In this document: positions 846-4,081 of the stretch, piece by piece
Numbering within the stretch: position 1 is the first letter of the stretch
Layout of the letters: each line of letters begins with the position of its first letter
Assembly: GCA_016187515.1 (NCBI GenBank)
Contig: JACPJN010000006.1
Span: 257,556-321,555, forward strand
Source of the DNA: Candidatus Uhrbacteria bacterium
Lineage (GTDB): Bacteria; Patescibacteriota; Patescibacteriia; GWA2-47-26
Length of the DNA: 64,000 nt
Direction of reading: 5' to 3'
The notes under the pieces: model-generated
The model's input: only the letters and a program-made list of their open reading frames with translations
Databases searched by the model: none
Told to the model about the DNA's origin: nothing
Program-made: the position numbers and the translations under genes

Positions 846-925
846 TATAGCATAGGGCATAGAGCAAAGGGCATAGAGATTGTTTTCTCTACGCTCTAAG
901 CTATAAGCTCTTAGCTCTAAGCTGC
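846..925. repeat. Heptamer-unit hairpin insertion (GCATAGA/GCTAAGA family) inside the 23S rRNA gene
   Basis: catagggcatagagcaaagggcatagag – loop – ctctacgctctaagctataagctcttagctctaagc. It is an imperfect inverted repeat built from tandem 7-mers. Confidence 0.6.
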
Positions 926-1054
926 GTGCGAAGCACGCTAACTTCTCCCCTTAACGTTCTGACACTGGCCAGGCATCAGCCCCTATACATTGCCTTACGG
1001 CTTCGCAGGGACCTGTGTTTTTGGTAAACAGTCGCTTGAGAGACGCTTGCTGCG

Positions 1055-1192
1055 CCCCCACACCTATCAGGTACCTTGCGTAGCACCTTGGCGCCGTACA
1101 ATGACGGTAATTATTGCAAAGTACACACTAACCTGCGTATAGTACGCAAATTGTGTGGCGCTTCGCGCCAAAGTACCTGATAGGTGTGGGGG
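1055..1192. repeat. MITE-like element bounded by 20-bp terminal inverted repeats CCCCCACACCTATCAGGTAC, inserted in the 23S rRNA gene
   Basis: cccccacacctatcaggtac at 1055-1074 and gtacctgataggtgtggggg at 1173-1192 form perfect TIRs around about 100 nt of unrelated sequence. A second copy with the same TIRs lies at 24969-25103. Confidence 0.6.
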
Positions 1193-1381
1193 AGGCCTTA
1201 TCCCGAAGTTACGGCCACTTTTTTGCCGAGTTCCTAAACGAGGGTTCTCTCGTACACCTTGGCACACTTGTGCCCGGGGACCTGTGTCGGTTTACGGTAC
1301 GGATAACCTACGACAAAATCTCAAAGCTTTTCTTGGCTCCTTGTTCATGAGAATTGACTCGACCTTGCGGCTTTGTCTGCA

Positions 1382-1505
1382 GCCGCGCTCCGCGCGGAGT
1401 TCACAGTTGTCAGTCATCAGTTCACAGTAATTGTTGTTTGTTGGACAATCAATTCAACACTGTGAACCGTGAACCGTTGACTGTAGACTCTGTGCGAAGC
1501 ACAGC
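1382..1505. repeat. GTTCACAG-family hairpin insertion in the 23S rRNA gene
   Basis: ggagttcacagttgtcagtcatcagttcacag … cactgtgaaccgtgaaccgttgactgtagactctgtg. The same unit family occurs in yebC (52258-52312) and in the phosphatase gene (41778-41875). Confidence 0.5.
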
Positions 1506-2639
1506 TATGTGCGTAACCATGAGCACACTCTCACTAGTAAGAAGCGCACCTTGAGACGACTCGTAAGCTAGCGCAGGAATATTAACCTGCTGTCCATCGG
1601 CTACGCCTTTCGGCCTCGCCTTAGGCCCGGCTCACCCTGGGTCGATTTGCGTTGCCCAGGAAACCTTCCCCTTACGGTGTGGAGGGTTCTCACCTCCATT
1701 TGTGCTACTTATGCCAACATTCTCTCTTCCTGCCGCTCCACGGCGGCTCGCGCCTACCGCTTCAACGCTGACAAGAATGCTCCCCTACCGCTCGCGCCTC
1801 GCTGCCGCTCGTCACTCGCTTTGTGTACGAATCAACGAATGCCGTTGCGAATACTACGAATTTGAATTTGTATTATTCGTAATATTCGGCAATCATTCGC
1901 AATTCGTACACAGAGTGCCAAACGATAGTGAGGCACGAGCTCTTGTCTTCGGTATACCGCTTAGCCCCGATACATTTTCAGCGCGCAAGGGCTCGACCAG
2001 TGAGCTGTTACGCTTTCTTTAAAGGATGGCTGCTTCTAAGCCAACCTCCTGGTTGTATAAGCCTTTACACTTCTTTTCACACTTAGCGGTAATTTAGGGA
2101 CCTTAGACGAAGATCTGGGCTGTTTCCCTTTTGCACGACGGAGCTTAGCCCCCATCTGCTGACTCCCATGGCACCCCTGCGGCATTCGGAGGTTGATTCA
2201 ATTTGACAGCTTGCGCCGCCAAGATCGATTCAGTGCTCTACCTCCGCAGGTAATCCATAGGGCTATACCACAGTATATTTCGGGGAGAACCAGCTATCAC
2301 CCAGTTCGATTGGTATTTCACCTCTAGCCACGGGTCATCCCATAGTGTTGCACGGCTAATGGGTTCGGACCTCCCTCCGCATTTCTGCGGAGTTCATCCT
2401 GCCGATGGCTAGCTCACCGGGTTTCGGGTCTAGTCCACGCTGCTTTTGCACGAATGACTCACGAATGATTTGTGAGCAATTTGTAACAAATTACTCACGA
2501 ATATCAATTTAGTGAGTCATTCGTGCGTTAACGCCCTTTCAGACTTGGTTTCCCTGCGCCTTCGTCCCGTAGGACTTAGACTGGGCAACGCGGAACAAAC
2601 TCGTTGGCTCATTCTTCAATAGGAACACCATCACCGCGC

Positions 2640-2760
2640 ACAGCGCGGAAGCTCCAAATTCCAATTTCCAAATCACAAACAAATTCGAAATCCCAACATT
2701 CAAATCCCAAGTTTGTAATTTGGAATTTGTAATTTGGGTATTGTTTGTAATTTGGTGCTT
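2640..2760. repeat. CAAATTCCAAAT / ATTTGGAATTTG hairpin insertion in the 23S rRNA gene
   Basis: ccaaattccaatttccaaatcacaaacaaattcgaaatcccaac…caagtttgtaatttggaatttgtaatttgggtattgtttgtaatttgg. The same family is found in-frame in leuS at 62879-63060. Confidence 0.55.
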
Positions 2761-4081
2761 GGTTATTGGATATTCCGTGCTATGCACGGCTCTGATTCCT
2801 TGTAAGCGTATGGTTTCAGGTTCTATTTCACCGGCCTCACCGGCCTACTTTTCACCTTTCCCTCACGGTACTGGTTCGCTATCGGTTAGAGAGGAGTATT
2901 TAGCCTTGGCGCATAGTCGCGCCGGATTCCCACGGGATTTCACGAGTCCCGCGGTACTCAAGTATGATCATAGTAAGGCGATAACCCCTTTCGCGTACGG
3001 GACTATCACCCTCTTTGGTTGGCCTTTCCAGACCATTCTACTAGGGAAGTTACGCTACGTATACCTTACCTCACTATCAAGGCAGTGATCATGACCATCT
3101 TACAACTGCGCTCATCTTTTTAACCCTTGAGTCTTCCACAAAGCGCGTGACACTGCATCTTTCGATGAAGCGCCCGCCTCTCCGCTTTAAGATGAGGGCT
3201 CTAGGCTCATCCCCGTTCGCTCGCCGCTACTAAGGGAATACACGAATGACTCGCCAATGGAGTTACGAATTACCCACAAATAAATTCGTGAGCTATTCGT
3301 CTGCCATTAGTGAGCTATTCGCAATTAGTTTCTTTTCCTCTGGTTACTGAGATGTTTCACTTCACCAGGTTTACTTCTTGCATATTGCTATACAAGATGA
3401 TCCGATGTTAATCGGACCGGGTTGCCCCATTCGGATACCCACGGATCAAAGCTTGCTTGCCAGCTCCCCGTGGCTTATCGCAGGCTGCTGCGTCCTTCAT
3501 CGTCTCTCTCTACCAAGGCATCCACCATACGCCCTTTTGGCACTGAAGCACAAATTTGGATATATGCGCGAATACGCGCGAATCGTCACGTCCCGGTCGC
3601 AAAGCGACCGAGGATCCTCGGCAAAGCCGGGACTTGGACAATCGCGAATAAACGCGAATATGTTATTGCTTGGGTTACTAGTCGAAACTAGCAACTCGTT
3701 TTAGATGCGATTACTCTATATTCAATTGTCAATGGACTCGATAGCGCAGATGGCTACCGCCCGCTGGTTTCGCAGAATCACTATCTGCGCGATCCGCGGC
3801 CGAAAGGCATCTGTGTAATCAAAGGGCCTCGCTTCCAAGCGAGGCCCCAAAATTACACCGAAAAAACACGGCTACCCGCTTGGAAAGATTAATTTCAAGG
3901 TTTTTGCCATATTTTGGCTAAAACTTAGGGCCTCCGGCTACTTCTTATTATCACTCCTACTATGCCACACCCCCAAAATCGTGTCAAGTGCGGCTCCTCC
4001 ACAGGGTATAAACACAAAAAAGAAGCTCCACCTTCGGGTGGAGCAACAAAGGAGCTGGGTCTGTTTTGCATCGAGAGAGAT

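Follow-up and report, generated by a model that had tools for sequence, protein, structure and literature searches.

Why should a ribosomal RNA gene carry the same short repeats as the protein genes around it? We asked this of a 64,000-nucleotide stretch of a Candidatus Uhrbacteria genome (contig JACPJN010000006.1; the window, with positions counted from its first letter), where a partial 23S rRNA gene holds long extra hairpins whose arms are built largely from tandem repeats of 7 to 8 nt. With a probability of roughly 55%, we read these hairpins as small, non-autonomous palindromic cassettes without an open reading frame (ORF), copied around the genome and persisting only where an extra stem or loop is harmless. 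By analogy, the inserts are most likely comparable to intervening sequences (IVSs) in rRNA and to Rickettsia palindromic elements (RPEs) in proteins.

Hairpin Inserts at the Tips of 23S rRNA Helices

An Rfam search placed bacterial large-subunit rRNA (RF02541) on the minus strand of the window, and BLAST aligned E. coli rrlH 23–1931 with window positions 3526–770, where the similarity ends. A global Rfam alignment (647–3549), in which all 2925 model positions were forced in, lost its 3' third after BLAST against E. coli and scans of sub-regions. The gene is interrupted after E. coli U1931, a position that, together with a LAGLIDADG motif, fits a group I intron. The Intron_gpI core at 744–544 (minus strand) reached 44.2 bits (E = 7e-10), slightly short of the gathering score of 50, and a LAGLIDADG-like ORF, whose translation begins MEIASYITGFIDGEGSF, starts at about 85 and runs past the end of the window.

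770–3549, minus strand: 23S rRNA gene, 5' two-thirds (E. coli 1–1931), from Rfam RF02541 and BLAST against E. coli rrlH
1–769, minus strand: probable group I intron, truncated at the window edge, from Rfam Intron_gpI and the LAGLIDADG-like ORF

In the structure-annotated Rfam alignments, seven extra segments each fell within the terminal loop of a consensus hairpin. Both classical IVS sites, helix 25 (H25) and helix 45 (H45), are filled. The assignments to H58, H63 and H68, unlike those to H25 and H45, are ones that we take from the E. coli map. An eighth such hairpin lies in the intron.

Insert A, 3244–3322, minus strand: tip of a domain I hairpin, ~E. coli 225–232; loop 2 to 82 nt; 11-nt ATTCGTGAGCT unit
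Insert C, 2637–2786, minus strand: H25 tip; Rfam hairpin-loop insertion; type 2 base module GUGCAUAGCACGG / CCGCGCUGUGCGC with CAAAUUC-type heptamer arms
Insert D, 2448–2526, minus strand: tip of a domain II hairpin, ~E. coli 640–655; loop 2 to 86 nt; 11-nt CACGAATGACT unit
Insert E, ~1797–1925, minus strand: H45 tip; Rfam hairpin-loop insertion; type 3 base module CUCACUAUCGUU / GAGCGGCAGCGAG with an ACGAAT-repeat hairpin
Insert F, 1380–1507, minus strand: H58 region; loop 38 to 135 nt; type 1 base module with GTTCACA heptamer arms
Insert G, 1055–1192, minus strand: H63 tip; loop 2 to 112 nt; terminal inverted repeats CCCCCACACCTATCAGGTACC / GGTACCTGATAGGTGTGGGGG around a non-repeat interior
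Insert H, 827–938, minus strand: H68 tip; loop 2 to 106 nt; type 1 base module GUGCUUCGCAC / GCGCGGAGCGC with GCATAGA/CTCTAAG heptamer arms (period 7 in Tandem Repeats Finder, TRF)
Intron hairpin, 236–330, minus strand: paralogue of the H45 insert E

Predicted folds in the rRNA sense gave z-scores of -7.0 (A), -10.2 (C), -8.7 (D), -10.3 (E), -7.4 (F), -8.4 (G) and -8.0 (H), and for each insert none of 200 shuffles folded as well. The intron hairpin (236–335) reached -5.6. It matches insert E at 78 of ~100 aligned columns (236–330 against 1817–1918, same strand), and by inspection of this one pair the differences fall as G–U wobbles in the sense strand. A search for inverted repeats with Watson–Crick pairs only missed most hairpins, because each unit of their arms contains one recurrent mismatch or wobble, and it was replaced by folding and TRF. 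The segment 3115–3188 was also tried as a repeat hairpin insert and rejected, with a z-score of -2.4 and a length typical of the lineage.

Much of this had been proposed in a sequence-only reading of the same DNA. That reading recognized the 5' two-thirds of a 23S gene, in agreement with BLAST, and raised the question whether the inserts replace helix tips, which the Rfam alignments bear out for every insert. The inserts it listed lie where it put them, although it missed insert G and assigned to the rRNA a copy at 240–330 that belongs to the probable group I intron and not to the 23S proper. Its figure of ~1.2 kb of extra sequence was too high: the net excess is ~0.85 kb over E. coli (2780 - 1931) and ~0.63 kb over the median anchor spacing of 120 relatives.

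Could hairpin-rich reads simply have been joined wrongly into the rRNA gene? One short-read contig, assembled from a different sample of this population and 99.98% identical to the window across 16.8 kb, stops at window position 3341, precisely the outer edge of hairpin A. This suggests that assemblers break at such hairpins, and it leaves the rRNA part resting on one assembly. The conserved 23S blocks, however, are all there and correctly ordered, and inserts interrupt them at hairpin loops only. Dozens of independent metagenome-assembled genomes (MAGs) have inserts of this kind at the same sites, and the inserts in coding sequences are identical in five separate assemblies. We therefore give an assembly artefact hardly any credence.

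In the 23S leader, at 3562–3661, CGCGAAT direct repeats flank a GC-rich hairpin; the arrangement could belong to the processing stem or represent a further CGAAT-family member.

Repeat Units Shared by rRNA, Protein Genes, and Spacers

TRF reported 67 non-overlapping short tandem arrays in the window, against 10.3 expected (maximum 16) in order-2 Markov simulations. Arrays of period 7 (22 against 1.0 expected) and period 8 (8 against 1.6) were both in excess. Fifteen of the period-7 arrays and all eight of the period-8 arrays lie within protein-coding genes, where periods that are not multiples of three point to a process at the DNA level and not to protein-level repeats. The arrays commonly form inverted pairs, so that the hairpin arms consist of tandem 7- to 8-nt units with about one mismatch or wobble per unit.

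Four rRNA repeat families were found elsewhere in the window, as the sequence-only reading had claimed for coding and intergenic DNA: GCATAGA in TsaD, Gdh and Wzy; GTTCACAGTCGTC in YebC and a phosphatase; CAAATTCC in LeuS; and ATTCGTGAG downstream of rpoC. Shared 9-mers followed the same pattern. Insert H had 95 matches elsewhere in the window, where 23 were expected and the highest count in 500 simulations was 70, clustering in TsaD, the Wzy_C gene, Gdh and the intergenic DNA at 51.3 kb. Insert F had 51 against 30 expected (p ~0.02), clustering in the phosphatase and YebC genes. Insert C produced a cluster of 55 positions in LeuS, and the matches of inserts A and D gathered at 53660–53709, just past the rpoC terminator. 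No 9-mer excess against the rest of the window was seen for the segments labelled B, E and G or for the intron copy; insert E and the intron copy share nothing with coding sequences at this level. The ATTCGT/ACGAAT hexamers are concentrated as well, with 21 of 48 inside the five regions singled out by the sequence-only reading, which together account for 0.69% of the window (binomial p = 7e-33). Between the phosphatase and YebC genes, the GTTCACAGTCGTC copies agree at 24 of 25 bases, and each translates as SSQSSVHS.

The same reading had envisaged a single repertoire, which describes only part of the picture. Repeat units are indeed common to rRNA, coding sequences and spacers, but the GC-rich base modules (GTGCTTCGCAC...GCGCGGAGCGC and others) are confined within the window to the 23S gene, always in one orientation, and the copies in coding sequences lack them. 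The heptamer families are thus shared between rRNA and protein genes at the level of the repeat unit, and true termini common to rRNA, coding and intergenic copies occur only in the CCCCCACACC family. Two intergenic representatives of the repeat families are the following.

51289–51525, intergenic: GCATAGA/CTCTATG arms, ~180 nt apart (TRF, folds)
53655–53720, intergenic: ATTCGTGAG-type direct array of period 11/22, directly after the rpoC terminator hairpin, with a 13-mer in common with insert D

The first of these lies between a GalT/HIT-like gene and ruvC. The ~180 nt between its arms are unrelated, and the locus may be a hairpin element itself split by an insertion.

In-Frame Inserts in Protein Genes

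Pfam matches remain full in TsaD, Gdh, Wzy, YebC, LeuS, TrxB and the phosphatase despite the in-frame inserts, which are located as follows.

12256–12311, minus strand: TsaD insert site 6, a 40-nt CCCCCACACC/GGTGTGGGGG hairpin with an 8-bp direct duplication TTTACCCC (gene strand), from orthologue alignment
12571–12633, 12719–12787, 12977–13040, 13210–13284 and 13398–13461, minus strand: five more in-frame hairpin or tandem inserts in TsaD (TRF, folds, orthologue alignment and model confidence)
26903–26970, plus strand: GCTTAGA/CTCTACG heptamer hairpin, in frame in the Wzy_C (O-antigen ligase-like) gene (TRF, folds, 9-mers)
33666–33716 and 33835–33899, plus strand: two GCAAAGG/CTCTACG heptamer hairpins, in frame in Gdh (TRF, folds, 9-mers)
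41777–41872, plus strand: GTTCACAGTCGTC array followed by a AATAACTC array, in the linker between purple-acid-phosphatase and GH113 domains (TRF, Pfam); 41777–41801 in common with insert F
52258–52282, minus strand: GTTCACAGTCGTC array, in frame in YebC, in common with insert F
62882–63061, plus strand: CAAATTC-type array (62882–62945) and ATTAGAA array (63026–63061), in frame in LeuS, one-armed and not full hairpins

TsaD was followed by comparison with orthologues. The protein (identical to NCBI MBI2552137.1; nearest homologues in Candidatus Uhrbacteria and allies) has 443 aa, within a range of 328–446 aa among orthologues. Its extra residues fall at six sites, are absent from the short orthologues and are replaced in longer ones by unrelated low-complexity peptides. 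At the DNA level, four orthologues carry four different hairpin or tandem families at one and the same site. The closest orthologue (L129) is empty at site 6, where it reads CAATTTACCCCATGGCAA; the window has that sequence plus 48 bases. In an AlphaFold model of TsaD, computed from the orthologue alignment, the core has a predicted local distance difference test score (pLDDT) above 90, five low-confidence segments coincide with insert sites, and the sixth insert lengthens two helices. Judged from this model, the TsaD inserts sit in predicted loop-like, structurally permissive positions.

A test for 3n length bias is uninformative here, because an intact essential gene admits only inserts of 3n length. 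In the GCATAGA family the coding copies have 20 stop triplets out of frame but none in frame, the latter being required of any intact ORF, and the unit that would put TAG in frame reads CAG or is otherwise altered. The rRNA copy has stops in all three frames. The idea that hairpins in mRNA are selected to be weaker was dropped, the antisense strand being more stable in ~9 of 14 copies, which is not significant.

Other repeats accompany these inserts. The Wzy_C gene contains two 100% identical (CTACTTA)x4.3 arrays, at 26717–26746 and 27359–27388 (plus strand), 640 nt apart, both translated as LLLTTYYLL in hydrophobic stretches. A second hairpin type, built of G/C runs (CCCCTCC...GGAGGGG), occurs in the TrxB-like gene at 32441–32520 and encodes PPxxxGG-type peptides such as PPFQGGVRGG. 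Peptides of PPLKVRGGGG type near the C-terminus of Wzy resemble the products of such hairpins, at the peptide level only. In two relatives (L127 and L128), G/C-run hairpins occupy TsaD loops that hold heptamer hairpins in the window.

Sporadic Occurrence and Shared Cassettes in Relatives

For comparison we collected 120 23S loci by scanning species-representative genomes with a lineage-typical 23S 20-mer. They come from Uhrbacteria, Buchananbacteria, Falkowbacteria and other Patescibacteria, and include some mislabelled MAGs. Whether a site was filled was judged from the distance between the conserved anchors on either side of it.

Site A: filled in 8 of 108 relatives
Site C: filled in 15 of 118 relatives
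Site D: filled in 7 of 11 relatives, few being assessable since the anchors were rarely found
Site E: filled in 7 of 56 relatives
Site F: filled in 4 of 80 relatives
Site G: filled in 3 of 76 relatives
Site H: filled in 3 of 77 relatives

Among the 73 relatives with at least five assessable sites, 50 had none filled, 14 had one, 6 had two, 2 had three and 1 had four; the window has six filled, with a modest excess at A. The inserts are therefore sporadic, as IVSs are, and not conserved lineage-specific segments; segments of the latter kind were what the sequence-only reading had named as refuting its view. Lineage-wide presence, as in expansion segments, was found only for 3115–3188 and for a variable ~55-nt hairpin at site A. 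This hairpin stands in nearly every relative (L007–L126) where E. coli has 9 nt. It is unrelated to the window's insert A and differs in sequence in almost every genome, so that site A looks like a hypervariable helix with rapid turnover.

The inserts of relatives are likewise long hairpins. Short arrays are present in 29 of 53, with period 7 dominant (27 arrays, and a further 5 of period 14). Three base modules recur at different helices.

Type 1, GTGCTTCGCAC...GCGCGGAGCGC: window inserts F and H; L014 site G
Type 2, CCGTGCATAGCACGGAA...TTCCGCGCTGTGCGCGG: window insert C; L014 site C; L017 site E; L078 site D
Type 3, ...CTCACTnnCGTTCG...CGAGCGGTAGCGAG...: window insert E; L063 site A; L077 site C; L029 site F; L126 site C

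Matches across sites include L014 site C with L078 site D (89% over 47 nt) and L063 site A with L077 site C (96% over 28 nt). Within a single 23S gene, that of L010, the insert at H25 matches the one at H45 with 93.8% identity over 96 nt. These sequence comparisons support the idea that copies of the cassettes move between helices.

The opposite possibility is purely local growth, in which each tip or loop expands in place by slippage and compensatory change, nothing is transferred between sites, and shared heptamers are merely motifs that slip easily. In-place slippage is the model proposed for eukaryotic expansion segments. It would account well for arms made of tandem 7- to 8-nt units, internally homogenised with one recurring mismatch each, for the unrelated sequences found in the same TsaD loops of orthologues and for a site A hairpin that differs in almost every relative; the lack of polymorphism within the population and of a link to a transposase also suits it. 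Local slippage explains the structure of the arms, but it does not explain near-identical copies of 96–100 nt at two different helices of one gene, nor identical GC-rich base modules at different helices in different genera. Equally hard to derive from it are the termini of ~17–20 nt common to rRNA and intergenic elements with unrelated interiors, the recurrence of their 10-nt ends in a coding insert with an 8-bp flanking duplication, and the identity of 24 of 25 nt in two unrelated genes. On balance, we consider growth without transfer unlikely.

Are the stems instead functional expansion segments, kept in mature ribosomes under selection for a role such as factor binding, dimerisation or stability? 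Folding was stronger in the sense than in the antisense strand for all 45 rRNA inserts tested, with a mean difference of -11.8 kcal/mol (Wilcoxon p = 6e-14). The stretches compared take in some native flanking rRNA, so that the comparison is not a clean test and is suggestive of RNA-level selection on the inserts; the G–U wobbles between insert E and the intron hairpin point the same way. The conservation of base modules across genera would also fit a role. A conserved function is contradicted, however, by the distribution, with no insert in 50 of 73 relatives and filled sites that vary by genome, and it agrees poorly with arm sequences unconstrained beyond pairing and with the presence of the same units in protein genes and spacers. 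We regard such a role as distinctly improbable.

A Terminal-Repeat Family with GIY-YIG Versions

The clearest element boundaries belong to the CCCCCACACC family, which has three copies in the window, namely insert G in the rRNA (H63), an intergenic element and the TsaD insert, with unrelated interiors and lengths of 44–138 nt.

24969–25103, intergenic: 135-nt element with the terminal inverted repeats of insert G; z-score ~-6 on both strands

Insert G and this intergenic element share terminal inverted repeats of ~17–20 nt (CCCCCACACCT[A/T]TCAGG...CCTGATAGGTGTGGGGG). With the 40-nt TsaD hairpin (12264–12307), insert G shares only the 10-nt ends, and its relatives were found through the termini alone. 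The flanking 8-bp duplication TTTACCCC is seen at the TsaD copy only, in comparison with the empty L129 site; none is evident at the rRNA or intergenic copy.

Larger versions exist in relatives. The inverted repeats CCCCCACACCTTTC / GAAAGGTGTGGGGG bound ~340 nt at the H25 tip of both L089 and L110; read in the rRNA sense, each of these elements carries a complete ORF for a GIY-YIG protein of 94 aa (Pfam E = 2e-16 and 3e-15). When metagenomes were scanned with the terminal 17-mer CCCCCACACCTNTCAGG, 120 matches came back, of which 118 were lone and probably due to chance. The other two, at orthologous loci (L153 3935–4244 and L208 8000–8310), are real paired elements: their two termini are 310 nt apart and enclose a decayed GIY-YIG ORF, and the element occupies the 5' end of a class A RNase P RNA gene. 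The same RNase P RNA has a second, ORF-less CCCCCACA...UGUGGGGG insert in another hairpin loop.

These finds allow a specific version of the mobility step in our reading: the cassettes could be degenerate, ORF-less derivatives of small homing-type elements, encoding GIY-YIG or perhaps other nucleases, that target the hairpin tips of RNA genes, with repair of the cut copying the element. Complete ORFs between matching termini in H25 tips, a decayed-ORF version beside an ORF-less copy in RNase P RNA, and ORF-less window copies with the same termini form a series consistent with this. A tblastn search, however, found no GIY-YIG gene in the window, the link is limited to the CCCCCACACC family and does not extend to the heptamer families with base modules 1–3, only 2 of the 120 metagenome matches were real paired elements, and both the nuclease activity and its target are putative. 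As an account of all the inserts, nuclease-driven copying is doubtful.

Elsewhere, a related GIY-YIG ORF lies directly upstream of a tRNA gene (L046 553–980), and the first 12 bases of the tRNA (GCCGGAGTGGTG) are duplicated beyond the ORF, as if it had been inserted in or beside the tRNA gene. Within the window, an IS30-type transposase gene (HTH_38 and rve; 18993–19985, minus strand) has no evident link to the hairpin elements, nor has an AbiEii toxin gene (48979–49692, minus strand).

How the Cassettes Could Spread and Persist

Under the reading of mobile palindromic cassettes, those in rRNA would occupy the terminal loops of solvent-exposed helices, in the variable regions that bacterial IVSs use (H25, H45). 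Eukaryotic expansion segments use the same variable regions. The GC-rich base module would continue the host helix and be followed by a long pair of arms, biased to pair in the rRNA sense. The stem in the transcript could then either be cut by a double-strand RNase, which is the fate of an IVS and leads to a fragmented 23S rRNA, or be kept as an expansion segment. The arms may lengthen by slippage of 7- to 8-nt, sometimes 11-nt, units, after which template switching within the hairpin, for instance, could match the opposite arm again. Protein genes would keep the units, free of base modules, only as 3n, stop-free versions in loop regions. For the family with CCCCCACACCTNTCAGG termini, the GIY-YIG versions in relatives suggest copying driven by a nuclease.

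The sequence-only reading had gone in the same direction, and its long stems, in-frame coding copies and intergenic copies all stand, whereas its idea of one undivided repertoire is right only in part. Several observations weigh against mobile cassettes in any form. No mobilising enzyme linked to the elements was found in the 64-kb window, and a target duplication was seen at one copy only. Outside rRNA the heptamer families are without defined termini, and for this reason common descent of their rRNA and coding copies rests on shared units of 9–25 nt, which might have arisen from recurrent slippage of favoured motifs. The sense-strand bias is weakened by the native flanks in the tested stretches. 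The closest 23S relative found is only 85% identical, so that insertion events can be neither dated nor polarised. Finally, five independent assemblies of the same population (99.97–100% identity) revealed no indel polymorphism over 16.8 kb, a region that includes all TsaD inserts, and thus gave no sign of ongoing movement.

A bolder form of the cassette reading is tentatively possible. The elements could represent an undescribed class in the candidate phyla radiation (CPR), consisting of structure-seeking palindromic cassettes that home to the hairpin tips of RNA genes (23S, RNase P RNA, introns) and to coding loops, with the GIY-YIG versions as autonomous partners and heptamer slippage as the means of arm growth. 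If so, they would be a bacterial and currently active analogue of the process behind eukaryotic rRNA expansion segments, and a general means by which reduced genomes gain new protein loops.

Comparison with Known Systems

Bacterial 23S IVSs (Salmonella, Leptospira, Campylobacter, PMC2801512, and Coxiella, PMC4990558) resemble the window inserts in that an extra stem-loop replaces the H25 or H45 tip, occurrence among relatives is sporadic, related sequences appear at different sites and some carry a small ORF. Replacement of a terminal loop, according to Rfam, and a long precursor stem, according to the predicted folds, are both found in the window. Unlike IVSs, the window inserts fill six to seven tips in one gene, including H63, H68, the H58 region and two small hairpins of domains I and II, which are not classical sites. 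Their arms are tandem 7- to 8-nt repeats whose units recur in protein genes, and they are known here from the gene alone, whereas excision by RNase III defines an IVS.

RPEs, reportedly described by Ogata and colleagues in 2000 and 2002, are said to be in-frame palindromes in functional genes, present also in an RNA gene and in spacers, that form families of 100–150 bp with a consensus and have been read as selfish DNA. Like the present inserts, they are palindromic repeats placed in frame in unrelated functional proteins at permissive surface positions. In contrast, most families here are defined by a 7- to 8-nt unit, copies at one orthologous site differ, multiple rRNA tips are filled and the host belongs to another phylum. 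The window units GCATAGA, GTTCACA and CAAATTC are presumably not RPE-like, and we take the inserts to work like RPEs without being members of them.

The CCCCCACACC family is comparable to the bacterial miniature transposable elements with inverted repeats known as MITEs (reviewed in PMC10969869; for Coxiella QMITEs, PMC5896051), with terminal inverted repeats, a variable interior, lengths of 44–138 nt, one flanking duplication, and copies in coding sequence, spacer and RNA genes. Shared terminal inverted repeats are a feature of this family only, the heptamer families having no defined termini. Unlike MITEs, the family has no relative encoding a transposase among those found; its only ORF-bearing relatives encode a GIY-YIG nuclease.

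Hancock and Dover reportedly explained rRNA expansion segments by "compensatory slippage". The permissive helices correspond, as we take it, to H25/ES7, H45/ES15 and H63/ES27 (expansion segments, ES). Such segments are like the window inserts in their simple, repeat-rich composition, their two co-varying arms and their use of the same permissive helices. Prokaryotic examples are reported in 5S rRNA (PMC7812874). In eukaryotes, expansion segments are fixed in large clades and retained in mature rRNA, whereas the window inserts are sporadic, with cassettes shared between sites.

Tandem heptamer repeats form the short tandemly repeated repetitive (STRR) sequences of cyanobacteria. These and the TAACTGA repeats of Beggiatoaceae (PMC4679880) are, like ours, dispersed heptamer arrays of 2–6 units with an unexplained origin; they are direct arrays in spacers, whereas in the window most arrays pair with one another as the arms of hairpins and are found within rRNA and protein genes.

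In the CPR, insertions of at least 100 nt are present in 77% of 23S genes and are largely missing from transcripts, according to the part of Brown et al. (2015) relayed in PMC9297842. The probable group I intron of the window, with its putative homing endonuclease, belongs to that kind. PMC9297842 considers CPR insertions collectively, as probable introns; helix-tip hairpins with repeat arms and a link to coding sequences are not described in it, and neither "hairpin" nor "intervening" occurs in its text. Our search of a limited literature collection likewise found no account of repeat-armed helix-tip hairpins in the CPR or of a connection between rRNA and coding inserts.

The present case shows that part of the CPR rRNA insertions, so far treated in bulk as introns, are short, repeat-armed helix-tip hairpins with recognisable cassette families, which affects the annotation of rRNA genes, phylogeny based on 23S rRNA and estimates of CPR ribosome size. 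One pool of sequences across rRNA, introns, spacers and proteins would serve as a natural map of tolerated stems and loops. If the stems are retained, the origin of expansion segments becomes testable, and the GIY-YIG-flanked version may represent a novel type of mobile element, one directed at hairpins in RNA genes.

Domain Arrangement of LeuS

The LeuS protein that carries the CAAATTC-type and ATTAGAA arrays also contains a NUDIX hydrolase domain (PF00293, residues 399–515; window 63383–63733, plus strand) inserted behind its editing domain, an arrangement that seems atypical of leucyl-tRNA synthetases.

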